A stretch of DNA of 64,000 nt from Patescibacteria group bacterium (GTDB lineage: Bacteria > Patescibacteriota > Patescibacteriia > 2-01-FULL-39-33): contig JBAZQS010000002.1 in NCBI GenBank assembly GCA_041645075.1, forward strand, positions 693 through 64,692, read 5' to 3'. Below the pieces are notes generated by a model. The model had not been told where the DNA came from. It saw nothing but the letters and a program-made list of their open reading frames with translations, and did not search any database. Both the position numbers and the translations under genes were made by a program. Position 1 is the first letter of the stretch; each line of letters begins with the position of its first letter. This document shows, piece by piece, positions 3,757 to 50,134 of this stretch.

Positions 3757-4974
3757 ATGAAAATCGGCATAGACGCGCGGCTTTATGGGACTAAACACGG
3801 CGGTATTGGGCGGTATGCGCAAAAATTAATTGAGCATTTGGAAAAAATTGATTCAGAAAATCAGTATGTGGTTTTTTTGCAAAAAAATAATTTTAGCGAG
3901 TACCAGCCGCAGAATAAAAATTTTACTAAGGTTTTGGCGGATTTTCGCGCTTATGGCTGGCAAGAGCAGATTTTATTTCCCAAACTTCTAAATAAATATA
4001 ATTTTGACTTTGTCCATTTTACGCATTTTAACGCGCCAATTTTTTTTGGCGGAAAATTTATGGTCACGATTCACGACTTGATAATTTCTCATTATCCGGA
4101 TAGCCGAGCCACGACCTTAAATCCGTTTTTATATAAAATAAAATTAATTTTTTATAATATCGTGATAAATCACGCCGCCAAGAAAGCGGAAAAAATTATC
4201 GCGGTTTCCGAGTATACAAAAAACGATATTATTAAATTTTTAAAAGTCGTCCCCGAAAAAATCGCGGTCACTTATGAGGGTTATGATCCGCCCAAGGATA
4301 TTGGCCATGATTGCCAAAATATAATTCAGCAATTTGGCATTAACGGCGAATATATTTTATATGTGGGTTCGGCCTATCCGCACAAGAATTTGGAAAGATT
4401 AATTTTGGCTTTTGAAAAGATAATTGAAGGATTACCCCACCCTAACCCTCCCCTTATAAAGGGGAGGGGGGAATCCTTATTTTCCTCCCCCTTCATAAGG
4501 GGGAGGTTAGGAGGGGGTAAATTGAATGACTTAAAATTAGTCCTTGTCGGCAGTAAAAATTATTTTTACGAGCGCTTAGAAAAAGAAATAAAAAAATTGA
4601 ATCTACAAAACGAAGTAATTCTCACCGGCTATTGCGATGACAATCAATTGGCCTGTCTGTATAAGAATGCCAAGGCCTATGTTTTCCCAAGTTTGATTGA
4701 GGGTTTTGGTTTGCCGCCACTGGAAGCGCAAAGTTATGGCGTGCCCGTGGCCAGCTCAAACGCCACTTGCTTGCCGGAAGTTTTGGGCGACAGCGCGTTT
4801 TATTTTGACCCCGAAAATATAAATGATATGGCGGAAAAAATATCGCGAATAATTAATGATGAAAATTTAAGAAACGATTTAATTAATAAGGGCCTTGAAA
4901 ACTTAAAAAAATATAGCTGGGAAAATTGCGCCCAGAAAACACTGGAGATTTATAATTTGACATTTATTAAATGA
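3757..4974 (+). CDS. Glycosyltransferase family 1 (GT4) carrying an in-frame palindromic insertion
   Basis: MKIGIDARLYG start; EGFGLPPLEAQSYGVPVASS motif. 4435-4519 is a nested GC-rich palindrome translated in frame. Confidence 0.85.
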   Translation: MKIGIDARLYGTKHGGIGRYAQKLIEHLEKIDSENQYVVFLQKNNFSEYQPQNKNFTKVLADFRAYGWQEQILFPKLLNKYNFDFVHFTHFNAPIFFGGKFMVTIHDLIISHYPDSRATTLNPFLYKIKLIFYNIVINHAAKKAEKIIAVSEYTKNDIIKFLKVVPEKIAVTYEGYDPPKDIGHDCQNIIQQFGINGEYILYVGSAYPHKNLERLILAFEKIIEGLPHPNPPLIKGRGESLFSSPFIRGRLGGGKLNDLKLVLVGSKNYFYERLEKEIKKLNLQNEVILTGYCDDNQLACLYKNAKAYVFPSLIEGFGLPPLEAQSYGVPVASSNATCLPEVLGDSAFYFDPENINDMAEKISRIINDENLRNDLINKGLENLKKYSWENCAQKTLEIYNLTFIK

Positions 4975-9801: not shown

Positions 9802-11910
9802 ATGCCCGATGGCTCGAATCCGTTAAATTCAAATCAAGAAAATCAAAATATGGATTTACCCTTAAACCCAAAACCAAGTAAAGATAATTTAAAAAAATTG
9901 AATTTTTTTTCTAATTATCCAGCCAATAAAGACAACGGCAGCCAAGGCAAAAAAGGGTCCGCCAGCCGGCGGATTAGATTTTTTAGAAAAGAAGTCAGCA
10001 CCATGCAAGACGACATCGCTAACTTAATCGCCAGCAAAAATCGTAAGGCCGGTAAAAAAAATGGCGTATCAAACCAGCGCCGGGATATTCAAAGGAATTT
10101 AACCGAGGTCTATACGGACGGCGACGGCAAAATTCCCGATTTAACCAAATTAGAAAGAATTCAGCGGCCGCTCTGGAAAACCGTTTTGTATGTTTTAATC
10201 GCGGTCTTAGCTGTTTTACTTGTGGCGGCGATTGCCGGTTTTTACTTTTTCAATAATTTAAATAATCAGGATGCCTTTACCAATGAGAAAGTGGCTTTAA
10301 AAATTGAAACGCCGATCGCCATTGTTTCCGGCCAGGAAATGGTTTATACCATCACCATCACCAATAAGGAAAAAGTCAATTTATATAATGCCGAATTGGA
10401 ACTTTTTTATCCTGATAATTTTGAATATGTCTCGGCCGAGCCGGTCGCCCTGGGCGATAAGAAAAATACTTGGGATTTTGCGGTTATTAAAACCGGGGAA
10501 ACCCAGAAAATCCAATTAACCGGAAAAATTTTAGCGCCCCTCAATTCCACCCAAACCATCAAGGGCACGTTAAATTTTAAGCCCTCTAATTTAAACGCGA
10601 CCTTCAAGCAGGAGGCCATTGTTGATGTCGTGGTCTCGGCTTCAAATATTAGTTTGGATGTTACGGGTCCGGAAAAGACCTTAGCCAACCAGAAAGTGGA
10701 ATATGTTATAAAATATAAAAATACCGGCCAAGACGATTTATCCGACTTACAGTTGGTGGCGGAGTATCCGGACGGATTTGTTTTTAATTCTTCCGACCCC
10801 GAGCCCCAAAACGATAATGGCAATAATAATGTGTGGGCGATAAAGGCCTTAAAACAAAATGCGGAAGGGCAATTGAAAATAAAAGGAGATTATTCCGCGG
10901 TCCAAACCGGCGGCAACCGCGATTTCAAAGTTCGCGTTCAATTAAAAAAAGATAATGATTATTATCCGCAAAGCGAAACGTCTTTCGTGACCACGATTAT
11001 TAAAGACCAATTATCTTTGCAGTTGATTATTAACGGTTCGGCCGAAGACCAGCCGATTAATTTTGATGACCTGCTTGTTTATTCTTTGAGTTTTAAAAAT
11101 ACCGGACAGGAAGAACTGAAAGACATAAAAATTTTCGCTAATATGAATTCGCAGATTTTGGATTGGAATACTTTAAAAGACGACCGTCGCGGTTCAAGAT
11201 CGCAGAATTCCATTGTTTGGACGGGCAAAGAAGCGCCCAAATTGTTGAAATTGGCGCCGGGCGAAGAGGGCCAGATTAACTGGAGCATTAGAGTCAAGGA
11301 TTCATCGGTCATTAATGATAAAAATGTAAATAAATTCAATGTAGAGAGTTATATTGAAGGCCGGGCCAGTCAAAGCGGCGAGGCCAGCGGCGAATCAATA
11401 GTAAAAAGCAAAACCGTGGTTAATGCCATAAATTCCGATTTGGGCTTAAATGCTTACGCGCGTTATTATGATGAAGATAATATGGCCTTGGGCGCGGGCC
11501 CGATTCAGCCAACCGTTGGGGAAAAATCCAGTTATAATATCAAATTGGAATTAGCCAATAATTTGCATGATGTTAAGGATTTGCTGGTGGTGGCAACTTT
11601 GCCGAAAGGCGCGGAGTGGGCCGGCCAAGAAACACACACGGCCGGGGATTTGAATTTTAATCAGCAAGCAAAAAAGATAACCTGGACGATTTCTCGTCTC
11701 GCTAAATCAGCCAATAAGGTGGCTGCGACATTTAATGTCGGCCTTAACCCTGGCGATGATGATTTCGGCAAGGTCTTAATTTTAATTTCGGAAATTCAAT
11801 TGACGGGCAAAGACGCGGAAACCGGAGCCGATATCAGCAAGTCATTAAAAGCCATCACCACTTCTTTTGATGACCCGATTTTAGGTCAGGTGAGCGGGAT
11901 AGTGAAATAA
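9802..11910 (+). CDS. Surface protein with DUF11-type repeats, N-terminal TM anchor
   Basis: Repeated segments such as YTITITNKEKVNLYNAELELFYPDNFEYVSAEP and YVIKYKNTGQDDLSDLQLVAEYPDGFVFNSSDP. Confidence 0.6.
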   Translation: MPDGSNPLNSNQENQNMDLPLNPKPSKDNLKKLNFFSNYPANKDNGSQGKKGSASRRIRFFRKEVSTMQDDIANLIASKNRKAGKKNGVSNQRRDIQRNLTEVYTDGDGKIPDLTKLERIQRPLWKTVLYVLIAVLAVLLVAAIAGFYFFNNLNNQDAFTNEKVALKIETPIAIVSGQEMVYTITITNKEKVNLYNAELELFYPDNFEYVSAEPVALGDKKNTWDFAVIKTGETQKIQLTGKILAPLNSTQTIKGTLNFKPSNLNATFKQEAIVDVVVSASNISLDVTGPEKTLANQKVEYVIKYKNTGQDDLSDLQLVAEYPDGFVFNSSDPEPQNDNGNNNVWAIKALKQNAEGQLKIKGDYSAVQTGGNRDFKVRVQLKKDNDYYPQSETSFVTTIIKDQLSLQLIINGSAEDQPINFDDLLVYSLSFKNTGQEELKDIKIFANMNSQILDWNTLKDDRRGSRSQNSIVWTGKEAPKLLKLAPGEEGQINWSIRVKDSSVINDKNVNKFNVESYIEGRASQSGEASGESIVKSKTVVNAINSDLGLNAYARYYDEDNMALGAGPIQPTVGEKSSYNIKLELANNLHDVKDLLVVATLPKGAEWAGQETHTAGDLNFNQQAKKITWTISRLAKSANKVAATFNVGLNPGDDDFGKVLILISEIQLTGKDAETGADISKSLKAITTSFDDPILGQVSGIVK

Positions 11911-16817: not shown

Positions 16818-18200
16818 TTATGGCGCCATCTCAATATTTTTTCCCAAATTTTTAAAGCTCACTAAATCCTCATTAAAATATAATTTAATCACCCCGGTCG
16901 GTCCATTTCTGTGTTTGGCAATATGGATTTCCGCGATATGTTTTTCCTCCTCTGATAAAGAATTTAAGTCATAACCGCGGTCGGCGGATTTTCTGTAAAT
17001 AAACATGACCACATCCGCGTCCTGTTCAATAGAGCCGGATTCTCTCAAATGGGACAACTTCGGAATGGCCGGATGGCTGGCTTCCACGGCGCGGTTAAGC
17101 TGGGATATGGCCAAAACCGGGACATTTAATTCTCTGGCCACGCCCTTGAGCGAGCGGGATATTTCCGTGATTTCTTGCACCCGATTATCGCCGTGACTGC
17201 TTGACCCCTCCATTAATTGCAGATAATCAATAATAATCAGGTCTAAGCCGTGTTCCATTTGCAGTCGTCTGGCTTTGGTCCTGATTTCCATAATATTGCT
17301 GTTGGCAAAATCGTCAATAAATATCTGGCTTTCCGACAATTCGCTCATGGCGTGGCCGATTTTAGGAAAATCATCACCGCCCTCGGAAAGTTTGCCGGTG
17401 CGCATTTTCCACAGGCCCACGCCCGCCTCGGCGCAAATTAAGCGGTCCACTAATTGCTCTTTTGACATTTCCAAAGAAAATATGCCCACGGCCATTTTAT
17501 TTTTCGTGGCCACGTGTCTGGCGATATCAAGCGCCAAAGAGGTTTTTCCCACCGACGGCCTGGATGCCAAGATTAGCAAATCAGATTTTTGCATGCCGGC
17601 CAAAAGGTTGTCTAAATCCGTAAAGCCCGTCGGTATGCCTCTTAATTTTCCTTTTTCCCGGTGCAATTCGTCAATGCGGTCAAAAGCGTCTGATAAAATA
17701 TCCTGGATGGGCGTAAATTTTTCTTTCAAATAATTTTGCGAAACGGAAAAAATGGTTTGTTCGGCTTTATCAAGAACTTCGCTCACCTCCCGCTCTTCAT
17801 GATAACTGGTTTCCAGTATTTTGTTGGCCGCCGAAATCAACCTCCTTAAGGTGGATTTTTTTTGAATAATTTTTGCGTAAGAAATGACATGGGCGGCGGA
17901 GGGGACTTGGTTGGTCAGGGAAACCAAATAGCTCCGGCCGCCGATTTTTTCCAATAAATTTTTTTCCTGAAGCCGGCTGGATAAGCTCAAAAGGTCAATT
18001 TCCTCTTTCCGCTCAAATAAGTCCAAAATTGTTTCAAAAATAATATTATGATTTTCTGAATAAAAATCGCCCGCCTTGAGCAGGTCGGCGATTTTAATAA
18101 TCGCGTCCTTATCAATCAATAAGGCGCCCAATAAAGATTGCTCGGCTTCAATGTTTTGCGGGGGTAATTTTTCCACTAAATTTCGGGTATTGTCCGGCAT
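16818..18200 (-). CDS. dnaB: Replicative DNA helicase DnaB
   Basis: N-terminal QNIEAEQSLLGALLIDKDAI; Walker A/B region. Confidence 0.9.
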   Translation of the reverse strand: MPDNTRNLVEKLPPQNIEAEQSLLGALLIDKDAIIKIADLLKAGDFYSENHNIIFETILDLFERKEEIDLLSLSSRLQEKNLLEKIGGRSYLVSLTNQVPSAAHVISYAKIIQKKSTLRRLISAANKILETSYHEEREVSEVLDKAEQTIFSVSQNYLKEKFTPIQDILSDAFDRIDELHREKGKLRGIPTGFTDLDNLLAGMQKSDLLILASRPSVGKTSLALDIARHVATKNKMAVGIFSLEMSKEQLVDRLICAEAGVGLWKMRTGKLSEGGDDFPKIGHAMSELSESQIFIDDFANSNIMEIRTKARRLQMEHGLDLIIIDYLQLMEGSSSHGDNRVQEITEISRSLKGVARELNVPVLAISQLNRAVEASHPAIPKLSHLRESGSIEQDADVVMFIYRKSADRGYDLNSLSEEEKHIAEIHIAKHRNGPTGVIKLYFNEDLVSFKNLGKNIEMAP

Positions 18201-18361
18201 AGATATTTCATTCTGGCTAATTTTAATTCTAATGTATTTTAACTAATATATTTTATTTTCGCAAATGGAAGTTTTAAACAGATTATTCACGGATTGTTAG
18301 CCCCCTAAATGTTGCTAAAAATAAATTTATTTGTTATAATATTTTTTGATACTAATAATAA

Positions 18362-18521
18362 GCGCCTATAGCTCAGTCTGGGTCGAGACCGCAGGTCGAG
18401 ACGGGTTGGAAGCGAGGTTAGGAGCGAAGCGACGACGCCGAGAGTCGGACAATCTGCTGGTAGCAGATTGGACGCCAACCCAGGAAGAGCAACAGTATTG
18501 TTTTAAAAATTAATTAAGTCA
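18362..18521 (+). other. tRNA-Lys 5'-fragment duplication interrupted by a 102-nt GC-rich hairpin insert
   Basis: 18362-18381 is identical to the first 20 nt of tRNA-Lys. 18485-18494 (agagcaacag) again matches the tRNA. 18382-18483 is GC-rich with stems such as caatctgct-ggta-agcagattg. Confidence 0.45.
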
Positions 18522-18522
18522 C

Positions 18523-18599
18523 GCGCCTATAGCTCAGTCTGGTAGAGCAACAGCCTTTTAAGCTGATGGTCGCAGGTTCAAATCCTGCTGGGCGCACCA
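18523..18599 (+). tRNA. tRNA-Lys (anticodon TTT), CCA encoded
   Basis: Cloverleaf by hand: acceptor GCGCCTA/TGGGCGC, anticodon loop CTTTTAA, T-loop TTCAAAT. Confidence 0.85.
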
Positions 18600-18648
18600 A
18601 TAAGGAACTTTCTGCCGTTAAGGCGATACTTTTTGTTTTTAATTTTGA

Positions 18649-18684
18649 CATTTGACATTAAAAAATATTAGCGGTATATTTAAA
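18649..18684 (+). promoter_or_regulatory. Sigma70-like promoter candidate (TTGACA-17-TATATT) upstream of ORF 18843
   Basis: ttgacattaaaaaatattagcggtatatt. Confidence 0.4.
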
Positions 18685-18842
18685 GCAGAAACACTGATTT
18701 GAAAACAAAAAAACGAATATAATCAGGGAGTCAGTTCCTTGAAAATTTGTAAATTTAGCCAAAAAGTGGCTAAATTTTTGTTTAAATAAAGCAGAAATAG
18801 GGGTTTGTGAATAACTTTAAAAGAAAGGAGGATTGACAAAAA

Positions 18843-19472
18843 GTGGCGGCAGGCGGTAAAGATCGATTAGATCGCTTGGATCGAGCGGTCGGCAAATCAT
18901 TCAAGTTGATTTGGGGAAAACTCCAGCGCCTTGATCGCTGGGGCGAAAGACAATGGCGGGAATATAGAAATTTTTGGATTCGCAACATCTGGCACGGCGG
19001 CAGCAAACAGCTGACCAAGCCAAGAACGGGCAACCGATTTTGGGATTTCCTGCAAGGCCGATTTTATGATCTTTGCCGTTTTCTGGATTGGCTGGACACC
19101 ATTAGTTATTTCCGCGGCCGAATTTATCAGGCCAAGGCCTGCCGAGTAAGAAGCAAGGCGGAGAAAAAGATCGCCAATTATTTTACAGATCACGGCGTTA
19201 AATTCCAGTATGAAAAAAGGCTTTACCTCGGCCCAAGGTCATCCCGGCCATTTCGTCCAGATTTTTATCTTAGCGATTATGGTGTTTATGTGGAATACTG
19301 GGGCCTGGCAGACAGTGACCCGGATTACGACAGAAGACATCGTGTCAAGTTGGCTGCATACCATAAGCACAAGATTCCGGTTATTTCGATTTACCCGCGT
19401 CAACTCGGTAACCTGGAAAGAATTTTCCCCCAGCTTTTTCGAGAGATAACGGGCAGGGATTTTCCTGCCTAA
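18843..19472 (+). CDS. Hypothetical protein with a possible restriction-endonuclease-like (PD-(D/E)xK) C-terminal segment; GTG start
   Basis: AGGAGG RBS 8 nt upstream of the GTG. The pattern AEKKIANYF...RPDFYL...VYVEYWG resembles E...PD...E-x nuclease cores. GC-rich. Confidence 0.45.
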   Translation: MAAGGKDRLDRLDRAVGKSFKLIWGKLQRLDRWGERQWREYRNFWIRNIWHGGSKQLTKPRTGNRFWDFLQGRFYDLCRFLDWLDTISYFRGRIYQAKACRVRSKAEKKIANYFTDHGVKFQYEKRLYLGPRSSRPFRPDFYLSDYGVYVEYWGLADSDPDYDRRHRVKLAAYHKHKIPVISIYPRQLGNLERIFPQLFREITGRDFPA

Positions 19473-19605
19473 AAATCAGATTAACAATGAAAGGAGGATT
19501 TTGAGGGCGAAATAAACCCACCCGCCTGCCCGCTGGCAAGGCAAGTCCGGCTCTCAACTCGTTTGAGAGAAAACCATTCCAATTTTTGTAAACCGGAGGT
19601 ATGTC

Positions 19606-20547
19606 ATGATGAAGGTTCTCGTTACCATTGGCGCCATCATCCTGCTGGTGCTTATCACTCTGCCGTGGTCGCGCGACTACTTCAAACAGAGCCGCAACAA
19701 CGCCAATAACGCGTTTCGCGATCGGGTTAGTATCGAACAGAAAATCGCCGCTGCGAAGGAAGAGCTCGGGAAAGCCCAGGCTTATGTGACCGAGCAGTAT
19801 GCCAAGGCCATCGGGGGCAAACGCATGTTGGCCGAACAAGAAGCGGCTCTGGACGGCAAAAAGGGGGAATTGGGCGTGAAACAGCCCATTTTCCTACGTG
19901 CTTCGGAGTGGATAGAAAAGTACAAGCCAGGCGACACCTTGTCGCTCGGCCCTCAGACCTTTTCTTACGCCGAAGTGTGCACCGACGCTTCCAATCGAGC
20001 TAATGCGATTAAAGACCTGAAAGCCACCGTTAAGATCCTGAGCCAGGGCAGTGACAGGCTGCGCAACACCATCAACGACAGTGAAGCCAACGCCAAAGAA
20101 GCATTGCGTCAGATCGCTAAAAGGGAAGGCGAGCTTCAGGCTCAAGAAATCGCCTTGAGAACCTGGGAAATAATCCAGGCAAATGAGGCCGTGTGTAAAG
20201 GCATTGCCTTTAATGGCAAGATGCCATTTAATACGCGGCATCTCCAGGCGATTGATGAGGCGATGGACAAAATGAAGGCCTCCATAGAAACTTCAGCCTG
20301 GGTTAAGACCAATTCAGGCGGCATTCCTTATGAAGGACCTCAACCATCAAATCAGAATGAGCTGGAAAACATCAAGGCGACTCGCCAGATGATTACCGGC
20401 GTGGTCCCGACTCCGGAAGCGACTTCCGAACCGATGTCGCCGGCCGAAGCGGCCAGCGAAGCGCTTAGCCAGTTGCCCGAATCGGCCCTGAAGCAACCCG
20501 CCAGCAAACCGGCGATTGCCACCCCGGCCGCGACCCCTGTTCATTAA
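19606..20547 (+). CDS. Membrane-anchored coiled-coil protein (hypothetical)
   Basis: N-terminal TM, long helical region, Pro/Ala-rich C-terminus. GGAGG RBS. GC-rich with unusual codon use. Confidence 0.55.
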   Translation: MMKVLVTIGAIILLVLITLPWSRDYFKQSRNNANNAFRDRVSIEQKIAAAKEELGKAQAYVTEQYAKAIGGKRMLAEQEAALDGKKGELGVKQPIFLRASEWIEKYKPGDTLSLGPQTFSYAEVCTDASNRANAIKDLKATVKILSQGSDRLRNTINDSEANAKEALRQIAKREGELQAQEIALRTWEIIQANEAVCKGIAFNGKMPFNTRHLQAIDEAMDKMKASIETSAWVKTNSGGIPYEGPQPSNQNELENIKATRQMITGVVPTPEATSEPMSPAEAASEALSQLPESALKQPASKPAIATPAATPVH

Positions 20548-20754
20548 TTCAATCTCGCCAATAAGCCGTAGCTTACAGCCAAACAATGGTTACAACAGGC
20601 AGACATCTCTGCCTCAAGTAAATACCGCATGGGCAGCCCCATGTCTCGTTTGACCTAAGCTCCCTTAGAGCGAATGCTTTTAGGAGTTTTTTCCCACGGA
20701 CCAGATTACCTCATCTGTTCAATAAGAAAAAACTCCTTTTTTTATTTTGAGATT

Positions 20755-20802
20755 CCGCCGAATACCTCGTCCCGACGTAACGTCGGGGCGAGGATGAGGC
20801 GG
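20755..20802. repeat. Palindromic repeat family B (CCCGACGTAACGTCGGGG core)
   Basis: Nested inverted repeat. Related copies at 49913-49936 and 63054-63077. Confidence 0.6.
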
Positions 20803-21189
20803 AAGTTTATGATTTAATCTGTGAGCTTTTGCCGATTCGCCAACAGGCGAAAAAGGCAAAAGCGAACACTGATCAAAAGAGGATTCCAAAGGGGCGCCCC
20901 CTTTGGTCGGTGGGCGGGATCTAAATAACCCGCCCACCGAAACCTACTTTATTTTTAGTTTTAGTTAAAATATGAGATTGACAAAGGTTTATTTTAGTCC
21001 TACGATATTATCAGCGGCACCTTGACAATTAAATAAAATAAAGCATTAAATCAGTTAGATATAGCTAAAATTGGAGAAAGGAACGCGGTTTTGTTTGGGC
21101 GGTAAAAATCTCTAAATTAAAGTTTGATTTTTGGTTATCAACCAGATGACTCTTTAATGATACAAAGAACGAAAAAGGAGGAAAGGAAA

Positions 21190-23256
21190 ATGAAGGGTGT
21201 TAAGGGATTCGCGTTTAAAGCTCTGGGAGCTTTAGTTTTGGTTTTTGTCTTGTGCGGTTATTCCTGTAAAGGCAAGGTTAAGCCGGAGTCGCTGTTGACA
21301 CCAAGTTCGGTCGGTCCGGTGGCCATACCCCAAGAGGAAATGCCCAATATGGATAATCCGACCCAATGCCTAACCAATGAGAATGGCATTCGTCAGAAGG
21401 CGATTATTACTCGCCGCGGCGTTTCTTGCAGCCAAGAGCCGGGCGGCGTGGAAGATGGTTTTGATTTGGATTATTTCCATTCTTATTTCGTCTTTGAAAC
21501 CGTAGAGGTAAACGGCATCATTTATTATCGGGTTGGCATTACCCCCCGGCGGGCAAATATTAAGGGCTGGGTGTCCGGCGCCAAAGTCCAATTATGGGAT
21601 ACAGCGATCGGCGCCCGGTACGCGCGTCCGGAAAGTGACGATCCGGAAAAGAAAGTCAGCCAGATTCTGCCCCCGCTTTACGTGTATGGGGAAAAGGAAG
21701 ATTCAATCAAGGCAATTAAAAGCGAGTCGGTTGAACCGATTGCCCAGACCCTCTATGACTACAAGTACAAAACCCAAATGGCTTGGCCCATAACTAAGAA
21801 AGAAGAATTTCCTTTCCAGGGCAAGACCTATGAGGTTTTTCAGATCGCTTTCTTGAGTGAATACCCGCAGGGCGGCGATATTAACGCGCCCCCGCCGGTA
21901 ATTACGCCCACGGTTGTGAGAACGGAAAAGCAGAAACAAGTGAAAGAAGGCGTTAAGACGATTGATGTCGTTTTTGTGATTGACACCACGCTTTCCACGA
22001 CGCCGTATATTGAAGCCGTCAAAGAGACGATCCGGAAAATTATGAACAGCTTGAATGGTATTAGCGCCGGTTCATTTAAACCGGACATCGCTTTCGGGCT
22101 GGTTGAATACCGCGATTTCGTCGACGGGCTTTACTTTAATGATAATGGCGCACAGAAGGTTTATCGGCTGTTCCAATTAACTAAGGATGCCCAGGCGTTT
22201 CTTAACCGCATTAATATTGTTAAGTCCGCTGGCAAATCCAGTGAGGGCTGGCAGGAAGCGGTTCTTGATGGTTTAAAAGCGGGTTTGATGGAAATCAGTT
22301 GGAGCAATGATTATTCGGAAAGGATATTGATTCTGATCGGAGATAATTCCGGCCACTCATCGGATTCGCCGGAAATTAAGACGGGCAGTAAAAGTCCGAA
22401 TAATATTTCGGTTGGCGATATTACCGTTTTAGCCAGTCGTAACCGGGCCACTATTTTTTCTTTGTTGGTTAAAAACCAAGCCGAGGCGGCCGAAGTGGCT
22501 CGTCACCTTAATCAGTTTACCGAGTTTGCGGAAAAAACCGGCGGTAAATGTTTTCCTTTGGAAGTGGTCGGCGAGATGGTTGGTTTGGTTTCTAACCGTA
22601 TTATTGACCCTAAAATCCAGGAAGCGGAAATCGGTACGGAAGTGGTGACGGCTAAACTTCGTGGCAGCTCGGAATCAGCCATTAAGGAAAAAGTCGGCGA
22701 GAAGCAATATGTGGAAGTGATGAAATGGCTTAGCAAGCGCAACATCACTGACCGCGATTTAAAACCGGGGGAAATTTTCTTTTCTACCGGTTGGGTGGTT
22801 TCTGAAGCGGGCGGCGTTAAGATTCTGGCCAAAGAGGCCTATATGGCCCGTTCGGAATTGAATCTGCTTTTGACCAATCTTCAGTCACTCAAAGATTTCT
22901 TAGCCAATCCTAAGGCCTCGGTTTCACTGATTGCCGCTGCATATTTTCCTCGTGTTCGAGAGAATATGCCGAATGTTGTTCGAGAGAATATGCCGAATTT
23001 CCTCGGCGAGGAGATTTCCTTGCCCATGAATGTTTGGCTGCAAATTAAGGGCATTCCCTTGTCCGAATACAGCATCTTGAAATTCAATAAGTCAATATTG
23101 GAACAGATGCCGGAGGAGACCAGGCGGACGATCAAACAACGGATCACGACTCAATGCCTGCCGGCGTTGATGAATGATTATAATGATTTTATCCGCTTTT
23201 CCAATCAGGATGATATAAACAGCTTTGGCTGGGTGAGGGAAAAATACCTGCCCTAA
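21190..23256 (+). CDS. Secreted/lipoprotein-like VWA domain protein
   Basis: Signal peptide MKGVKGFAFKALGALVLVFVLCGYSC. DVVFVIDTTLST (MIDAS-like) and ILILIGDNSGHS segments typical of vWA. RBS AAAGGAGG. Confidence 0.65.
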   Translation: MKGVKGFAFKALGALVLVFVLCGYSCKGKVKPESLLTPSSVGPVAIPQEEMPNMDNPTQCLTNENGIRQKAIITRRGVSCSQEPGGVEDGFDLDYFHSYFVFETVEVNGIIYYRVGITPRRANIKGWVSGAKVQLWDTAIGARYARPESDDPEKKVSQILPPLYVYGEKEDSIKAIKSESVEPIAQTLYDYKYKTQMAWPITKKEEFPFQGKTYEVFQIAFLSEYPQGGDINAPPPVITPTVVRTEKQKQVKEGVKTIDVVFVIDTTLSTTPYIEAVKETIRKIMNSLNGISAGSFKPDIAFGLVEYRDFVDGLYFNDNGAQKVYRLFQLTKDAQAFLNRINIVKSAGKSSEGWQEAVLDGLKAGLMEISWSNDYSERILILIGDNSGHSSDSPEIKTGSKSPNNISVGDITVLASRNRATIFSLLVKNQAEAAEVARHLNQFTEFAEKTGGKCFPLEVVGEMVGLVSNRIIDPKIQEAEIGTEVVTAKLRGSSESAIKEKVGEKQYVEVMKWLSKRNITDRDLKPGEIFFSTGWVVSEAGGVKILAKEAYMARSELNLLLTNLQSLKDFLANPKASVSLIAAAYFPRVRENMPNVVRENMPNFLGEEISLPMNVWLQIKGIPLSEYSILKFNKSILEQMPEETRRTIKQRITTQCLPALMNDYNDFIRFSNQDDINSFGWVREKYLP
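22954..23001 (+). repeat. 24-nt in-frame tandem duplication inside the VWA gene (VRENMPNV/VRENMPNF)
   Basis: gttcgagagaatatgccgaatgtt occurs twice. Confidence 0.8.
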
Positions 23257-23328
23257 GCTGATTAATCCGGGGAAGGCCTCGCAAATAAGCAACCTTCCCC
23301 GGAAACGTAAACTCAAACCAAGAAAAGG

Positions 23329-24114
23329 ATGAAACTCATGGAACCAGTGGTAGAGAGAGAAACAATGAAAAAAAAACTAACATGGTATCCGACTTTTGTC
23401 TTGCAAAACGTTAGTAAATTTTTTACCGTCGGCGGAGAAACAATTAAAGCGGTTGGTAATGCCTCGGTTTCAATTCCTTCTGGATGTATTACTGGGATTA
23501 TAGGCGAAAACGGTTCCGGCAAAACCACTTTATTGCATTTAATGGGCGGGCTCTATAAACCCGACCGTGGCCGGATTTATTACTATCATCCTGAGTACAA
23601 ACGTTATTTCCTCATACCGTATAACAACAAAAAATATATGCAGTATTTTTTGCGCCATCAGGTCGCTTGGATTTTTCAGAAATTAAATCTGATTTCACAT
23701 TTGACGGTTTGGCAAAATATCGTATTGCCGCTTTTCTTGAAAGGACAGTCCTATAAAAAAGAGGAGATTATCAAGCTTTTAAAAATACTGCGCCTGATCG
23801 ATCCGGAAAGAAATATTAATTTAATGAATAAGCGGCCGGAACAGCTTTCCAGCGGCGAGCAGCAGCGCGTAGCCATTGCTCGAGCTTTGGTGGCCAGGCC
23901 GCAGGTGATTTTGGCCGATGAGCCGACCGGCAACCTTGACTTGCGAAACCGCGATGTTTTTATGGAGATTCTTAAAGCGGCAAACCGAGATTACGGTATT
24001 ACAGTCGTTTTAATTACGCAGGAAGTTAGCTTGGTGAAGAAGTACTGCCATGCCTGTATTCTGTGTGAAAAATCCAATCAAGGAAATATTTGCGGTCAGC
24101 TGCAATGGCTTTAA
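23329..24114 (+). CDS. ABC transporter ATP-binding protein (MacB/FtsE/LolD-like)
   Basis: Walker [10 protein letters not shown], signature [15 protein letters not shown], Walker [12 protein letters not shown]. Start may be 23338 or 23353. Confidence 0.85.
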
Positions 24115-24149
24115 AATCCCACGCAGATTACTAAAGGGAGGTAAGATAA

Positions 24150-27100
24150 ATGAGAGGGTCAGATGATGGTATTTATGTTAGACCAATTAAACCGAAAGAT
24201 CGCGATAAAGAGCCGGGAGCGATTAAAACATTGCGGTATACTATTTCCTATATCCGCTTTAACTTTTTTGCTTTCTTGCTTAATATTTTGACGATTGGCA
24301 TTGCGGGAATTTCGATTATGGCCTTTGGCTATCTGGCTTATGCCGGCTATCAGGAAGCGCGGAGTAAACTGGAAAATAGTCAGACCAAAAAAATTATCGT
24401 CAGCTGTGTGGCTGATGAACGGCTTGATGAGACCAAGCGGTTTAATGCCAAGAAAATTGAAGAAATGAAAAAATTGCCTTGGGTGGTTGTCGCTTTTGAA
24501 CGGGTCTGCCAGAATGTTTATTTAAATATCTCCGGCGGCGACCCAAAATTGTCTTACATTGAAGGCACGATTCCCCATGACCCAGAAATTGACCCATTGT
24601 CAATGGAATGGGGCGGCGGTGTCAGTTCGCAGGACTCGGAAGAAATCGTCGTTACCTCATCGCTTTTAGATGAGCTTATCCGGCCGGCAATGGGGCGCGC
24701 TGGCGAATCAAGGGCTTTGCGACCGGAGGTGATTCGTTTGACGGTCAGAAGAACGGCCGGCAACGAAGAAAAAGATTTCCGCCGCGAGTACCAATTGGTC
24801 GGTGTCTTGAACAGCAAAATCAAGAAGGCCTTTATTCCGTTACGGCAAGCCAAATATCTGGAAATGTGGTGCGGCAGCAAGATTGACGACATGCCCGTGG
24901 TAGGCGGCAAAATTTCTCAACCGGAGATTGAAGTCAAAACCGGCCGCCTGTATGTTTCCAGTAATATCAGCGGAGAGACCCTGGATCAGGCCAAGAAGCA
25001 TTTCCAAATTGACCTAAAAGAAATTTTTTCTTATCGGGAGCCGGTTATCGGCGACATCGGCGAGATGAGAATTTTCCGAAAAGATAATCAGGCATTTTAT
25101 AACGCGGATATCGCCAAATTACAGAGCTTATTGCCAAATGATGTTAATATTTTTTCGGGCAATCAGGTTAAGGCGACATTTCGACTGGAACAGCGTGAAG
25201 TAAAAGGAGCAATCCTGCAGGCATTTTCCCTAAACGATCCACGTTTACGGAATTTAAAAATGATGGACAACAAAGGCATTGATACGGCCATCACCTCTCT
25301 TTACAGCGTGGTTATTTCCAAAGATCTCGCCAGCCGGCATTTGCCTTATGGCCTTGAGTCCCAGCCGGATTTAGTAGTGGAAATCGGACCGTTTCCGGTT
25401 AGCCTGAAAATTGTCGGCGCTTCCGAGGGCTATATTAACGATACGCCTTTTGACGCCTTATGCAGCCTTGATACTTTCAATTGTTTAAATCTGAACGTGG
25501 AATTAAAGAAGTTTTGCTTGGTGGTCATGACCAATCGGGCGACCGCTAAGCGGCTGAAAAACGGCGACTATCCAGTGAAAAAGGGCCAAACAGCCAAGAC
25601 CTTTCCGATTATTGAAAAGAAAATCAAAACTTGGGATTCCGACCCAAGTTCTAAGACGGTTCATTCTGCTGCCGGCGCGGATCGGAGAGATTCGGCCACC
25701 GCCCAAATAAATTCTTCTAACTCGTCTTTTGATGCGGGAGATTATTGCGCGATTGCCGCTCTGGAAGGCGATCGCGGCTCAATCAGTAAATTCATTAAAG
25801 ATCATTTCAACGACCCAAAGGTTGAAGTCATTGAACTCTCGGTTGTTGGCAACTGCAAGGTCTTAAGCGGCGACAAGACCAGAGAAGCAGAAATCGCTTT
25901 TTGCAATCCGGAAGAAATCAGTCATAGTCAATTGCCTTGGGCCTACCGGAGTTATCCTCTGGAAAGTGGCTCTGGTCTGGCAAGCGAAGAGGATTTTCCG
26001 TCGGATTATTCAATTGGGATAGGCGATACCCGCCTTGATTTGGTAAAAATTGACCAGGTCTTTCCGCGCGGGTACATTCTAGTCGGTCAAAAAAAGATGT
26101 CGGTTTTACTTCCCGGTCTGCAGAAACTTGAGGCAAAAAAAAGTACTGACGGAGAATATTTACCCGGCTTCCTTGATGTAACCATTAATAATCCGGTTAG
26201 TTATGAAAACGTGAAAGCGGCGATTGAGGGGCAGGGGCTTATCGTTAAAGAAGTCCGGGTGCCAAAAAACATCCAGGTGACTTGTTACCAATTCAGTTCG
26301 CTTCAGCCAGATGGGAAAATCAGCCGCCAATTAATTTCTTCTTTAAAGGCCGATAGAACATTTCTTGATGTTTGCCCCGAGATTAAAATTGAAGCGGCAA
26401 TCGGCGGCCTGCCACTGGAAAATAAATTTTCTTTTATCGGCAGTTACGTTGATGACCGGATCAAAACAAACATACCGGTTAAACTTGGCGGTTGGCTTAC
26501 CGGCTCGTCGCCTAATGAAGTGATGTTGCCGGAAAAAATGCTGGCAAACACCTCTAAGGATCCGAAAAATTTGATTGGTGAAAGCGTGACTCTGATATTT
26601 GAACGCCAAGTCAAGAGGTCCTACGGCGAGCCAACACTAGACGTTAAATGCGCTGTGGCCGGAATCACCACTGACGATCATGGCTATCTGCCCTTGGATC
26701 TGGTGAAAAGGGCTTACCTCTGGCAAACCGGTCGTCTGCCCTACAACGAGCGCAGTGGCACCTTCGTCAGCTCGGAAAACCTTTACGATAAATCCGGCCA
26801 CGAGTCGTGCAAGATCTACGTCAGAAATATTGCCGACGTTCGGCCGGCCGTTAACTACTTGCGCCAAGACCTTGGCTATGATACGGAAGATTATCTAAAA
26901 GATCAAGAACGAATTCGCGAGCTGGGCCGGATTTTGACTTTCTTGGTGATGATGATTGTTGTTGGCAACGTGATTTCCGGCATTCTTAATGTCGTGATCA
27001 CCACCTTAATGAACACCAAAACCAGGATTTATGAAATCGGCATCTTGCGGGCTCATGGCGCCAGCAATCGGTTGATTAAACGGATTTTTTTCCAACTCGG

Positions 27101-27362
27101 CTTAATGATGGGATTCGCCTCCTTTGCGGTTGCTTTTGCGGCCGCACCGCTGGTAATCGAACTGATCGCTTTTTCAATCAAGAAGGCCTTCTCAGTTGAG
27201 CTGACCAGGATTATGTCGGTCCCGTTTATCAGTTTTGATTACTGGTGGCTGCATTTGCTTGGACTGTTAATTACGGTTTTGTTCTGTGTCTTCGGCGTAT
27301 TTTGGTCAGCGCTTTTGGCCTGCAAAACGCCAATTGTTAAGGCCTTAATTTCCGGAAAATAA
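24150..27362 (+). CDS. MacB/FtsX-type ABC permease with a giant (~800 aa) extracytoplasmic domain
   Basis: N-terminal TM, a long soluble domain, and a C-terminal FtsX-like 3-TM module containing IYEIGILRAHGAS. AAGGGAGG RBS. Confidence 0.7.
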   Translation: MRGSDDGIYVRPIKPKDRDKEPGAIKTLRYTISYIRFNFFAFLLNILTIGIAGISIMAFGYLAYAGYQEARSKLENSQTKKIIVSCVADERLDETKRFNAKKIEEMKKLPWVVVAFERVCQNVYLNISGGDPKLSYIEGTIPHDPEIDPLSMEWGGGVSSQDSEEIVVTSSLLDELIRPAMGRAGESRALRPEVIRLTVRRTAGNEEKDFRREYQLVGVLNSKIKKAFIPLRQAKYLEMWCGSKIDDMPVVGGKISQPEIEVKTGRLYVSSNISGETLDQAKKHFQIDLKEIFSYREPVIGDIGEMRIFRKDNQAFYNADIAKLQSLLPNDVNIFSGNQVKATFRLEQREVKGAILQAFSLNDPRLRNLKMMDNKGIDTAITSLYSVVISKDLASRHLPYGLESQPDLVVEIGPFPVSLKIVGASEGYINDTPFDALCSLDTFNCLNLNVELKKFCLVVMTNRATAKRLKNGDYPVKKGQTAKTFPIIEKKIKTWDSDPSSKTVHSAAGADRRDSATAQINSSNSSFDAGDYCAIAALEGDRGSISKFIKDHFNDPKVEVIELSVVGNCKVLSGDKTREAEIAFCNPEEISHSQLPWAYRSYPLESGSGLASEEDFPSDYSIGIGDTRLDLVKIDQVFPRGYILVGQKKMSVLLPGLQKLEAKKSTDGEYLPGFLDVTINNPVSYENVKAAIEGQGLIVKEVRVPKNIQVTCYQFSSLQPDGKISRQLISSLKADRTFLDVCPEIKIEAAIGGLPLENKFSFIGSYVDDRIKTNIPVKLGGWLTGSSPNEVMLPEKMLANTSKDPKNLIGESVTLIFERQVKRSYGEPTLDVKCAVAGITTDDHGYLPLDLVKRAYLWQTGRLPYNERSGTFVSSENLYDKSGHESCKIYVRNIADVRPAVNYLRQDLGYDTEDYLKDQERIRELGRILTFLVMMIVVGNVISGILNVVITTLMNTKTRIYEIGILRAHGASNRLIKRIFFQLGLMMGFASFAVAFAAAPLVIELIAFSIKKAFSVELTRIMSVPFISFDYWWLHLLGLLITVLFCVFGVFWSALLACKTPIVKALISGK

Positions 27363-27374
27363 GGAGGAAGTAAA

Positions 27375-28208
27375 ATGAATCAAGAAGAACATGACCAAAA
27401 CGAAGGATTACCTTCAATTCCAATTAAGACCCCTGAAGCAGAACCCGATCGCGAACCGATTTTGCTTAAACCCATGTTCTCGCCGTTTTTGAGGAAGAGG
27501 CAGAAAAGTTCGTGGTCCGCTTTTCAGATCATCGGTCAGTTGATTATCATCGCCGGTTTTTTCTCGGCGGGCTGGATCGCGCATGATTATCGGTCGCAGC
27601 TGAAACCACTGATTAATAAAATTAATCCGTCGCCCGCGCCAACACCTGAACCGTTTATTGAGTTAAACAAATCGCTGGTTGTGGCCATGCTCTCGGAAAT
27701 CAACGCCGAGCAGAAGCGAGTCAGTGATGATAAATACGGATTGCAAGATAGGATTGACCGGTGCGATTTAACCTGGAAGGTTTTGAGAAATTCCGGTTAC
27801 ACTAAGGATTCAAATGAATGTAAGGGAATCTTCAAAGAAGCCCGGGAGCTTAAGAGGGGTTTGATTCAGAATAATCAACAGCTGGCCAAACTCAATAAAG
27901 CGGCCGATGGCTTGCGCGATGTGCTTCAGGACATTCGTTTGAAGGGCTATGTTATCAATAATCCGAAAACCCAGAAGTTGGTTTCTAATGTTGAGATTGC
28001 TCTGGGCGTCCGCCAGGGTCTTAATGAAGATGGCGGCGGATTAATTTCAGACCGAGATTGGAATGGCGAGGACCCCGACGAATTTATGAAGGGCCTTAAA
28101 AATAGCGGTCTAGAAAAACCGGTTGTCACTCCGTCATCGGTTCCGGTTGCGACCCAGTCGCCGGCTTCAAAAATTCCCGTCGCGGTGCCGATAACCGGGA
28201 ATCAGTAA
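27375..28208 (+). CDS. Hypothetical membrane-anchored protein
   Basis: GGAGGAAG RBS, one TM, Pro-rich C-terminus. Confidence 0.5.
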   Translation: MNQEEHDQNEGLPSIPIKTPEAEPDREPILLKPMFSPFLRKRQKSSWSAFQIIGQLIIIAGFFSAGWIAHDYRSQLKPLINKINPSPAPTPEPFIELNKSLVVAMLSEINAEQKRVSDDKYGLQDRIDRCDLTWKVLRNSGYTKDSNECKGIFKEARELKRGLIQNNQQLAKLNKAADGLRDVLQDIRLKGYVINNPKTQKLVSNVEIALGVRQGLNEDGGGLISDRDWNGEDPDEFMKGLKNSGLEKPVVTPSSVPVATQSPASKIPVAVPITGNQ

Positions 28209-28368
28209 CGTTCTTTTTTGACCGTTCTTTATCAATATCAACAGTCCAGTACTAAAAGTGCTGGACTTTTTATTTATATTTAATGCCTTGACAACCAGGG
28301 TAATTAAGCGTAAATTGAAATGAAACGAATGGTTTTTTGACAATTAATTATTATCAGGAGGAAGATAA

Positions 28369-28824
28369 ATGAGCCGCAGAAAAAGGAAATCAAACTTATT
28401 TCGATTCCCGACCAGTAAGTGGTGGCGTCGCGGCCAAGCCTTAGCCGATTTTTTAGGCGGTATGATTTTTGGCCTGGCGGAACAATTGGCTGGCTGGCTG
28501 ATTAGGTTTTTTAAGTTTTTTGGGCGGGTAATCTATTGGTTAATAATCAAGATTCCGGGTCGTAAGAAGAAAGACACGAGACAAAACGAAATCCAGCCAG
28601 AAAAAAATTTACCGAAAGAAACTGCCAGTCCTTTGGCGGACTGGCCGCCTCAAGCCCAAGAGGCCATTGCCGCCTTAATTTCTTTGGGGGTGGCAAAAGC
28701 AAACGCCGGCCCGGCCATTGCCAAGGCCCGGGCTAACCTTGGGTCAGGCGCTTCAACCCAGGATTTAATTAGAGAAGGTCTGAAATACCGACGCGGAATA
28801 TCGGAGATGGGAGCGGAAAAATGA
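28369..28824 (+). CDS. Small membrane protein with a RuvA domain-III-like (UBA-like) C-terminus
   Basis: AQEAIAALISLGVAKANAGPAIAKA...TQDLIREGLKY resembles the RuvA C-terminal domain. Confidence 0.45.
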   Translation: MSRRKRKSNLFRFPTSKWWRRGQALADFLGGMIFGLAEQLAGWLIRFFKFFGRVIYWLIIKIPGRKKKDTRQNEIQPEKNLPKETASPLADWPPQAQEAIAALISLGVAKANAGPAIAKARANLGSGASTQDLIREGLKYRRGISEMGAEK

Positions 28825-29477
28825 TTGGCGATAAAAATTTTTGGCTTTCAGTTATGATTTTTATAGTTGCTTGGTATTTATGGAAAAGCTTGTTGATGTA
28901 TCCGTTGCGGCTGTTGGTCACTCTACTTCATGAAAGCGGCCACGCCTTAGCCGCGGTTTTGACCGGTGGCGCCACGGAATTTATCAGTGTTGATATTCGT
29001 GGCAATGGCCGCGCGGTAACCAAGGGCGGGATCCGGCTGGTCATTTTAAACGGTGGCTATTTGGGCAGCGTGATTCTTGGCGTTTTTGTCTACCTTCTGC
29101 CTTATGGCCGATTTGGCCGCTATGCCCTAATGATTTTAGCCGCCTTGCTTTTGCTGATTGCCATTTTGTGGATCAGGGACTTTTTTACTATGATTTTTTC
29201 GCTCGGCTTAGGTCTGGGACTGGTTTTAATCAATTTATCGGTCTCCAATTCTTCCGCCATGCTCGTCGCCAAGTTTATCGGTTCTTGCTGTATTCTTTAC
29301 TCGGTGTTAAATATTGATTTCCATTTTCGTTACGGCAGGATGTTCTTTAACCGCCAAACCGACGATCAGGAATTGGCAAAATTAACAAAAATACCTGCCC
29401 GCCTTTGGCAGTTGGTCTGGCTCATTATTTCTCTGGTTATTTTTCTGCTCCTTACCAAGTCCACCCTAATGGAATAG
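28821..29477 (+). CDS. M50B-like integral membrane zinc metallopeptidase
   Basis: HESGHALAAVLTGG HExxH motif in a TM helix. ATGA overlap with the upstream gene. Confidence 0.6.
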   Translation: MIGDKNFWLSVMIFIVAWYLWKSLLMYPLRLLVTLLHESGHALAAVLTGGATEFISVDIRGNGRAVTKGGIRLVILNGGYLGSVILGVFVYLLPYGRFGRYALMILAALLLLIAILWIRDFFTMIFSLGLGLGLVLINLSVSNSSAMLVAKFIGSCCILYSVLNIDFHFRYGRMFFNRQTDDQELAKLTKIPARLWQLVWLIISLVIFLLLTKSTLME

Positions 29478-29560
29478 GGCGATGCCCAAATTTTTGCTTT
29501 AGCAAAAATTTTATTCCACAGGGTGAACCCTTAACGGTGTTTATTAGTAGCATTTATTAA

Positions 29561-29600
29561 GTCCGGACCGAGAGTGGTGCCGGACTTTTTAATTTTTTTT
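29561..29600 (+). terminator. Rho-independent terminator after the 21.2-29.5 kb operon
   Basis: gtccggaccgagagtggtgccggac hairpin followed by a T-run. Confidence 0.6.
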
Positions 29601-29677
29601 ATCAATTTCCGCCATTTGGTTCAAATCTATCATTCGTGTTATAATTAATTTGGAAAATATTAATTTTTAATCTTTAA

Positions 29678-42811: not shown

Positions 42812-42814
42812 TAT

Positions 42815-42845
42815 GAGATGGTTACAAAACTATATTTCTCTAAAT
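42815..42845. repeat. Solo terminal inverted repeat of MITE family C (GAGATGGTTACAAAACTATATTTCTCTAAAT)
   Basis: 31-nt identity with the left TIR of the MITE at 62973-63156. Confidence 0.7.
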
Positions 42846-50024: not shown

Positions 50025-50134
50025 GTCATTGCGAGAAGGCGTACTCGCCGACGAAGCAATCTAAATTTAAAAACAAGATTGCTTCGTTGGATTACCTCCT
50101 CGCAATGACAATTCGACGGGGCGCAATGACAAAA
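50025..50134. repeat. Palindromic repeat family A, second copy
   Basis: TTGTCATTGCGAG...CTCGCAATGACAA plus a third GCAATGACAA arm; shares the gattgcttcg core with 885-966. Confidence 0.75.

Follow-up and report, generated by a model that had tools for sequence, protein, structure and literature searches.

A structured GC-rich insert in a truncated 5′ copy of tRNA-Lys ahead of the intact gene in a Patescibacteria group bacterium

Results

A truncated and interrupted copy precedes tRNA-Lys

We analysed a 64-kb stretch of contig JBAZQS010000002.1 from a Patescibacteria group bacterium (hereafter the window), in which the intact tRNA-Lys(UUU) gene is preceded by a dead, truncated 5′ copy of itself that is interrupted in its D-loop by a GC-rich, structured insert (Table 1). 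The first 20 nucleotides (nt) of the gene, GCGCCTATAGCTCAGTCTGG, are found exactly twice in the window: the two occurrences are identical and 161 nt apart, as an earlier note on this sequence had stated. There is no further match in the window with three or fewer mismatches, and 0 matches are expected from shuffled sequence even when three mismatches are allowed. This first block of the copy spans the 5′ strand of the acceptor stem, the 5′ strand of the D-stem and most of the D-loop. Beyond the insert the tRNA sequence resumes with a second block, which covers the 3′ strand of the D-stem and the 5′ strand of the anticodon stem; beneath the insert, the D-stem is closed by GAGC of this second block, which pairs with GCTC at 18371–18374. 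Altogether, 12 of 13 positions agree between GGAAGAGCAACAG (18483–18495) and GGTAGAGCAACAG of the tRNA. The copy is recognisable as tRNA only to nt ~30–31, and neither a tRNA-Lys 3′ half nor a 3′ fragment of the copy occurs anywhere in the window; the earlier description of a tRNA pseudogene, disrupted by a small structured element and degenerating soon after it resumes, is borne out by this non-functional copy. The window encodes three other tRNAs, and none of them has such a duplication. An independent assembly from another sample (ENA ERZ27249422, k141_541705; our locus L196) is 100% identical over 18201–18860, so the feature is real and no assembly artefact.

The promoter scan places a strong sigma-70-type promoter upstream of the truncated copy; it is the sole one there, and no promoter- or terminator-like site lies between the copy and the intact tRNA. 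We infer from this layout that the copy and its insert are part of the transcribed leader of pre-tRNA-Lys, the predicted 5′ leader being ~175 nt long. The promoter box, tttatttgttataat, is kept in two related loci, L202 and L205. No intrinsic terminator or attenuator is called in 18340–18600, where the U-run begins at least 9 nt past the closing stem. In the minimum free energy (MFE) fold of the whole precursor, GCGCCUA of the leader copy pairs with the 3′ strand of the tRNA, which makes competition between the two acceptor strands physically plausible.

Architecture of the insert

The GC content of the insert is 61.8%, against ~40% for the genome and, folded alone, the insert beats its shuffles (z = −2.98). 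The earlier note was right about this GC-richness and structure, but not about a length of 102 nt: we count 103, with a boundary that is ambiguous by 1–2 nt owing to a shared GG. The 141 nt that separate the two 20-nt repeats contain no open reading frame (ORF). Two of the three stems that had been proposed are present, namely caatctgct/agcagattg, a perfect helix of 9 bp, and gggttgg/ccaaccc, which is stem P2; the third, ctggg/cccag, competes with the latter for one 3′ strand and has no support from comparative data. Covariance-model scores for the core three-way junction of the window are 147 bits (R1) and 86 bits (R2). The insert also has a motif, GGAGCGAAGCGACG, in common with a widespread repeat of the candidate phyla radiation (CPR).

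Table 1. Coordinates of the features at the tRNA-Lys locus of the window
Feature	Position	Strand	Description
Sigma-70-type promoter	18312–18340	+	TTGCTA, 17-nt spacer, TATAAT, extended TG (TGtTATAAT)
Truncated tRNA-Lys copy, first block	18362–18381	+	nt 1–20, identical to the real gene
Insert	18382–18484	+	103 nt, counting tRNA nt 21 as 18485
H1, 5′ module of the insert	18382–18402	+	GTCGAG, hairpin GACC-gca-GGTC (18387–18397), CGAGAC
Core three-way junction	18403–18481	+	P2, H3, H4 and junction strands
P2 stem	18403–18409 with 18475–18481		GGGTTGG with CCAACCC
Junction strand AAGCGAGG			Within the core three-way junction, between P2 and H3
H3	~18418–18439		Variable hairpin region
Junction strand GAGAGTCGGA			Within the core three-way junction, between H3 and H4
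H4	18446–18447 with 18473–18474; 18450–18458 with 18462–18470		C-G and G-C pairs, G·A/A·G loop, 9-bp stem
Truncated tRNA-Lys copy, second block	18485–18495	+	AAGAGCAACAG, tRNA nt 21–31 with T21→A
AT-rich spacer	18496–18522	+	27 nt, from truncated copy to intact gene; no promoter or terminator called
Intact tRNA-Lys(UUU)	18523–18599	+	77 nt including encoded CCA; ARAGORN call, Rfam 73.9 bits

A homologous insert in relatives

Comparisons were made with L-numbered loci, among them dnaB-anchored stretches from relatives reached through DnaB homologues. In L205–L211 (DnaB 78% identical) a homologous copy sits at the same D-loop junction, upstream of tRNA-Lys and with the same T21→A change, in the layout GCGCCCA-AGCTCAGTTGG, then GTTGAG...CTAACCCCGG, then AAGAGCAGC; its insert can be aligned with that of the window over the full length. 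The junction and the base change being common to the window and L205, a single ancestral insertion is indicated. Between the two inserts, ACGGGTTRGAAGCGARG, GAGAGTCGKA and ACGCYAACCC.GGAAGAGCA are conserved blocks, and compensatory changes are found in 7 of the 34 consensus pairs of this two-sequence alignment, in stems P2 (GGGTTGG/CCAACCC in the window, GGGTTAG/CTAACCC in L205), H1 (GACC/GGTC versus TCCGCC/GGCGGA, the L205 module being GTTGAG, TCCGCC-cca-GGCGGA, CGAAAC) and H4. Compensatory changes in the same comparison also link CAATCTGCT/AGCAGATTG with AAATTAGCT/AGCTAATTT. The L205 copy folds with z = −4.68.

In L202–L204, a sister lineage of L205 (DnaB 90% between them), the element has been reduced to its 3′ end by an internal deletion. 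Bearing in mind that the order of promoter, copy and tRNA occurs in L202 and L205 as well, this arrangement is ancestral to these lineages. The earlier note had called for a search for the uninterrupted site, and it exists: in L081 (DnaB 76%) and L201 (DnaB 78%) the promoter is directly joined to tRNA-Lys. L081, from which the element is absent, is the nearest sampled relative that retains tRNA-Lys next to dnaB; in L201 the element is absent on the 5′ side of the tRNA. Homology with L199, a 97% relative, stops at 18311/18312, its contig ends within the region, and its sequence from 18312 on has no match among the collected sequences. Independent assemblies of L202–L204, L197 and L199 break ~40–330 nt upstream of dnaB, in or beside the tRNA-Lys repeat region, probably because duplicated tRNA segments fragment short-read assemblies.

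A family of three-way junctions beside tRNA genes

The insert belongs to a small, uncatalogued, structure-conserved family that is found only beside tRNA genes or their fragments in Patescibacteria. Its divergent members (L040:141–274, L153:58–202, L201:750–880 and 917–1069, L003:2099–2175) were found with a covariance model made from the window and L205-type sequences. Those of L040 and L153 are found a short way downstream of tRNA-Glu, bracketed by an inverted T-arm-like GGGGAATCGAAC and by ATTCCCCTAGGGACTAC, a 3′ fragment of tRNA-Glu; that of L003 is flanked by tRNA-Lys and a tRNA-Lys 3′ fragment; and the two of L201 are in tandem just downstream of tRNA-Lys, one of them with a 20-nt palindrome, CCTGCCTGCCGGTAGGCAGG (hpA), nested within H4. 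The members thus occupy at least four unrelated contexts, each no more than ~300 nt from a tRNA and all co-oriented with it; the insertion loop is the D-loop in the window and the T-loop in other members.

All seven members fold independently to the same architecture: an outer P2 of 6–7 bp, a purine-rich strand AA(R)CGA(R)G, the variable hairpin H3, a strand (C)UGAG(N)GUCGG, H4, and a strand GACGC that leads into the 3′ strand of P2. H4 opens in every member with C-G and G-C pairs, followed by G·A mismatches. The junction strands are conserved in primary sequence and the hairpins covary. We counted this covariation for P2 and H4 on a structure-blind MAFFT alignment of the seven members (A7): 91.2% of cells pair, as compared with 70.6% in shuffled alignments and 25–42% in slid controls, the observed value being reached in 0 of 500 shuffles, and double changes occur in 11 of the 18 pairs. 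The excess of G·U cells (5) over A·C cells (1) favours the tRNA-sense strand as the one that folds. A second covariance model, built from the seven members, detected no further copies in ~1.4 Mb of collected sequence; BLAST found no other copy of the insert in the window or in 160+ loci; and IMG/VR scans for the insert or the junction motif returned nothing, or coding-region false positives only.

The earlier note had said that a match to a known RNA family would speak against its reading. Rfam 15 gave no significant match to the insert (the best overlapping hit had E = 4.5, on the opposite strand), none to the L201 members, and none at gathering score to 18 related loci; the models tried, including hammerhead, twister, pistol, hatchet, those like hepatitis delta virus (HDV) and riboswitches, do not fit. 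The element's GAG-hairpin-CGAAAC is reminiscent of a hammerhead, yet the core strands misfit, both by eye and with the Rfam models: a hammerhead requires the core strands CUGANGA and GAAA plus a UH cleavage site, whereas the junction here reads AA(R)CGA(R)G, (C)UGAG(N)GUCGG and GACG(C). A terminator or attenuator was rejected on a negative scan and the lack of a U-run immediately after the hairpin. As to a riboswitch-like leader, the fold is conserved, no platform was found, and many tRNA-Lys genes of the clade lack the element.

Two further suggestions of the earlier note did not hold. For an intron-like insert, and equally for a split tRNA, there is no 3′ exon and no group I core (Intron_gpI has no match at E ≤ 10 in 18250–18700; the same model scores 86 bits on L192, a positive control), and tRNA likeness ends at nt ~31, to be followed by the AT-rich spacer and a separate, complete gene. 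For a classical integration scar, the repeat is the 5′ part of a tRNA, only ~140 nt lie between the repeats, and there is no integrase; an att-type (attachment site) scar for the 11-kb island described below was likewise rejected, there being no tRNA-Lys 3′ fragment in the window.

Partial copies recur at tRNA-Lys genes

Another key observation, which like the conservation, covariation and family membership of the insert goes beyond the earlier note, is that the arrangement recurs at tRNA-Lys genes of the group. In a survey of 160 dnaB-anchored loci, adjacent partial self-copies accompany ~18 of 58 tRNA-Lys(UUU) genes versus 0 of 34 tRNA-Thr(UGU) genes (p = 9e-5). They are either of a 5′ type, 90–161 nt upstream, or of a 3′ type, downstream, and every one of them matches the tRNA of its own genome. 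A GC-rich structured insert lies at or next to a stem-loop boundary in all 17 of the 17 partial copies inspected (D-loop positions 8–22, anticodon stem 24–32, anticodon loop, T-loop 58/59), where the background hairpin density predicts ~0.01 insert per copy. GC-rich perfect hairpins in general (163 in 1.06 Mb) are enriched only ~2-fold near tRNAs, so the association is specific to tRNA fragments and not to tRNA flanks. On the DnaB tree, 5′ pseudo copies occur in 4 of 4 members of the clade L053/L126/L130/L155 and are scattered elsewhere; in L148 the leader is duplicated along with tRNA nt 1–20.

Two simple palindromes account for several of these inserts. The first, hpA (CCTGCCTGCCGGCAGGCAGG), is located at nt 21/22 in L043, L192 and L205 and at other tRNA positions too; 35 unrelated IMG/VR stretches contain it as well, frequently within short tandem repeats and at times in several copies on one contig. 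The second, hpB (TCCGCCAGCTGGCGGA), replaces nt 25–32 in L053, L130, L155 and L335/336. Units that contain them vary by exactly one among near-identical strains: L205–208 carry an 87-nt unit (tRNA 1–21, hpA, tRNA 22–39, spacer) that is absent from L209–211, and of two near-identical strains, one (L336) has two copies and the other (L335) one copy of a 167-nt unit that comprises a promoter, an hpB-bearing tRNA-Lys and a terminator. Rearrangements of this type recur at tRNA-Lys and are still active, and the window provides one example. We found no paper that contains the hpA or hpB strings, nor one on such an arrangement in Patescibacteria.

A GIY-YIG gene separates the pseudo copy from the working tRNA in L130, L155, L192 and L335/336; besides L192 and L335/336, only 3 of the first 160 loci have such ORFs. 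In L130 the fragments on either side have acceptor and D-loop variants in common (GGGGAGT / ACTCCCC); the acceptor variants complement each other and are unlike the intact tRNA, which shows that an incoming cassette split an older gene. At L192:480–1470 (IMGVR_UViG_3300035537_000177) a tRNA-Lys-like 5′ pseudo copy with hpA is followed by the GIY-YIG ORF, and the next gene has the same 5′ half and an anticodon loop interrupted by a group I intron (Rfam, 86 bits) with an HNH ORF.

Other forms of tRNA-associated palindrome came to light at these loci. Two IMG/VR stretches of 64–68% GC, L185:2239–2330 and L162, have an otherwise complete tRNA-Met with hpA in the variable loop. Full-length tRNA-Lys paralogues in L335:1750–2400 and L336:1580–2400 have the 5′ strand of the anticodon stem replaced by hpB, possess a promoter-like box and a terminator each, and are called ‘tRNA-???’ by ARAGORN. 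In L148, L147 and L201 a long palindrome, which takes in an inverted copy of the tRNA 3′ end, extends the terminator that follows tRNA-Lys (in L201, GCGCACAAATAAAAAAATCCG...CGGATTTTTTTATTTGTGCGC).

The downstream island and other features of the window

Genes neighbouring the locus include a divergent dnaB (16818–18200, minus strand) and recR, and they place the genome within Patescibacteria (CPR), close to Falkowbacteria, Magasanikbacteria and Buchananbacteria. Downstream, the earlier note had remarked on 10 kb of distinct composition, and we confirm a segment of ~11 kb (~18600–29620) with 46% GC as against 40% in its flanks. In L205–L211 an orthologous P-type ATPase (57% identity over 200 N-terminal residues) comes directly after tRNA-Lys, so that ~11 kb are extra in the window. 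This island begins with a T7 endonuclease I-like ORF (18843–19472) and also encodes a coiled-coil-like ORF, a von Willebrand factor A (VWA) protein and a MacB-type ATP-binding cassette (ABC) transporter; there are no tRNA repeats at its ends. Between tRNA-Lys and the next ORF, a strong sigma-70-like promoter at 18652–18680 (TTGACA-17-TATATT, 11/12) and a terminator-like hairpin at 18751–18777 suggest a possible small RNA of ~90 nt within 18652–18785.

GC-rich palindromic repeats elsewhere in the window are found at 900–985, 50020–50100, 4434–4475 / 48245–48286, 54615–54648 and 9958–9973. The repeat families are long hairpins of the type ‘tgtcattgcgag...cgaagcaatc’, which are widespread and share the GGAGCGAAGCGACG motif with the leader insert, GGGGAGGG hairpins, and an hpB-like TCCGCCAGCCGGCGGA terminator. 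An exact 32-nt sequence is repeated in direct orientation 20 kb apart (42814–42845 and 62972–63003), and an inverted copy stands at 63135–63158, 140 nt from the second; these could mark the termini of a mobile element or a site of inversion.

Discussion

We tentatively prefer, at somewhat less than even confidence, to see the element as a non-autonomous insertion module, associated with tRNA, that is transcribed together with its tRNA and removed by RNase P. A selfish module of this kind, specialised on tRNA genes, would enter at a loop next to a tRNA stem (in the window the D-loop, elsewhere the T-loop), and its insertion would be accompanied by duplication of the adjoining tRNA segment; because that segment is duplicated, one intact tRNA would survive and the insertion would be tolerated. 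The 161-nt unit 18382–18542, bounded by the 20-nt repeats, might be gained or lost through recombination between them. It would be passively transcribed from the tRNA promoter within the leader, and the cut by RNase P at the mature 5′ end would discard the leader and the module with it. The conserved fold may be recognised, as RNA or as single-stranded DNA, by a mobility or maintenance machinery supplied in trans.

In favour of a selfish nature we count the occurrence of members in at least four unrelated contexts, the tandem pair of L201, the nested hpA, the relic in L202–L204, the absence from L081, the inserts in 17 of 17 partial copies, and near-identical strains that differ by exactly one unit. 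Several observations weigh against it. We found neither a target-site duplication at the D-loop junction nor any conserved terminal sequence from which a transposition chemistry could be defined. The family has no linked recombinase, transposase or reverse transcriptase, and no candidate gene for a transposase-type partner is common to the neighbourhoods of its members; where GIY-YIG genes do occur, it is with a subset of the simpler hairpin units. In the 64 kb that represent the part of this genome searched, the element is single-copy. The family sample consists of 7 sequences from ~5 independent contexts, all in dnaB-anchored loci, and its tRNA association could therefore be partly an effect of ascertainment. 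Finally, retention at the same site at 78% DnaB identity, with compensatory changes, is no less compatible with a host-beneficial RNA than with a parasite.

This last point leads to the rival that survives best, although we still consider it unlikely: the insert is a host-beneficial non-coding RNA, or a cis-acting leader domain, expressed from the tRNA promoter on a tRNA-derived scaffold. It might be released by tRNA-processing enzymes, or it might modulate maturation of tRNA-Lys, since the second, identical 5′ acceptor strand of the leader can compete for the tRNA 3′ strand, a pairing seen with GCGCCUA in the MFE fold of the precursor. A structure that covaries and has the G·U and G·A features typical of RNA, in a position unchanged between lineages whose DnaB is only 78% identical, is what a functional RNA would be expected to show. 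So too is its place downstream of the sole promoter and its co-orientation with the tRNA in all members, and the 20-nt copy has the D-loop variant (AGTCTGG) that is peculiar to the tRNA of this genome. The patchy distribution is harder to reconcile with a host function: neither L081 nor the 5′ side of the tRNA in L201 has the element, and L202–L204 have lost its interior while the sister lineage L205–L211 keeps it. Moreover, members occur in different tRNAs and loops, in tandem arrays and, in one case, with a nested palindrome; the search for an expression platform was negative, the window has no terminator after the element, and we noticed no complementarity to the tRNA outside the duplicated strand.

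Improbable, in our estimation, is a neutral relic: a promoter-proximal tandem duplication of tRNA-Lys, later invaded by generic GC-rich CPR palindromes, its identity kept by gene conversion, its structure without a role, and its covariation a matter of palindrome maintenance at the DNA level. Such palindromes are certainly at hand, given that GC-rich perfect hairpins are common and ~2-fold enriched near tRNAs, that the GGAGCGAAGCGACG motif of the insert also occurs in a widespread CPR repeat and that hpA is present in unrelated IMG/VR stretches, and the duplication in L148 of the leader with tRNA nt 1–20 resembles a plain tandem duplication. Chance invasion, however, does not predict inserts in every partial copy inspected at ~0.01 expected per copy; conserved junction strands and covarying hairpins are unlike a simple palindrome, G·U pairs and tandem G·A mismatches are strand-specific, and streamlined genomes would be expected to drop 160 nt of junk over the divergence between the window and L205.

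We consider it very improbable that the element is the remnant of a larger integrative element or homing-endonuclease cassette between tRNA copies, since shrunk to 27 nt and complete in L130, L155, L192 and L335: GIY-YIG ORFs do separate hairpin-bearing pseudo copies from intact tRNA-Lys there (and in L336), L130 does record the splitting of an older gene, and the island with its T7 endonuclease I-like ORF does follow the window tRNA, but tblastn detects no GIY-YIG remnant in the window, L205–L211 have the same insert and likewise no nuclease gene between the copies, the loci with cassettes carry 16–20-nt palindromes rather than the three-way-junction element, and the window has no 3′ tRNA fragment.

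The three-way-junction element might exemplify a new class, a possibility that we regard as real but doubtful: a structured, possibly catalytic, mobile RNA or single-stranded DNA element that inserts into exposed loops of tRNA genes or their transcripts and thereby creates the partial duplications found around tRNA-Lys in Patescibacteria. Alternatively, and in a related way, it might gate tRNA-Lys maturation from its place in the leader beside a second acceptor strand. Should the family be confirmed, an uncatalogued structured element would join the very small set of CPR non-coding features, and the single-copy tRNA genes of minimal genomes would emerge as hot spots for structured inserts, palindromes, homing-endonuclease genes and group I introns, partial duplication letting the cell retain one working copy. 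The 161-nt unit with its 20-nt repeats would then offer a testable system for how tiny elements without ORFs move, and for the effect of a duplicated leader acceptor strand on tRNA maturation; natural presence/absence variants exist for analogous units. Genome annotation should take account of such loci, which give rise to pseudo-tRNA and ‘tRNA-???’ calls and to contig breaks.

Comparison with known systems

In 2002 Williams reportedly distinguished sublocation classes of the att sites of integrative elements at tRNA genes. As in att-type duplications, a direct repeat of part of a tRNA brackets the insert here while one intact tRNA is kept; insertion is at tRNA loops flanked by stems; there are tandem arrays and presence/absence variation among strains; and the empty site exists in relatives (L081, L201), with an analogous hpA unit present in L205 and absent from L209. 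tRNA gene fragments in prokaryotes have been treated before (PMC9897764). The window differs from the att type in that its repeat is the 5′ part of the tRNA (nt 1–20) and not the 3′ part, the 161-nt unit has no integrase, the insert has a conserved RNA-like fold, and the displaced copy is itself interrupted.

GC-rich palindromic mobile elements include the Rickettsia palindromic elements (RPE) and the repetitive extragenic palindromes and their mosaic assemblies (REP/BIME). The window element resembles such elements in being small, GC-rich, hairpin-forming and devoid of an ORF within an AT-rich genome (62% versus 40% GC), sporadic, structurally constrained and associated with tRNA, and its family shares their merging and nesting, as with hpA inside H4 in L201. 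In yeast mitochondria, GC clusters (GC42) are GC-rich palindromic mobile elements of an AT-rich genome (PMC4478555), and PstI palindromes flank tRNA genes in Neurospora according to Yin et al. 1981, as cited in PMC4478555. Unlike these, the window element forms a three-way junction, not a simple palindrome, and its junction strands are conserved; it is single-copy in 64 kb, shows no target-site duplication and is embedded in duplicated tRNA fragments.

Introns of tRNA genes comprise bacterial group I introns in anticodon loops and archaeal introns of the bulge-helix-bulge (BHB) type at non-canonical positions that include the D-loop. In common with them, a structured insert interrupts a tRNA at a loop, and a real group I intron with an HNH ORF is present in L192; but in the window there is no 3′ exon, the size and sequence do not fit group I, the host is a bacterium and an uninterrupted tRNA is encoded separately. 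Escherichia coli 3′ETS-leuZ, named for an external transcribed spacer (ETS), is an example of the small RNAs that are processed from the leaders, spacers or trailers of tRNA operons; the window element, too, is predicted to be co-transcribed with its tRNA and would be separated from it by RNase P, but it lies within a tRNA fragment and is patchy. With the defining features of each missing, the closest likeness is to two systems at once: the att-type partial duplications of tRNA genes, and the GC-rich mini-elements of AT-rich genomes.

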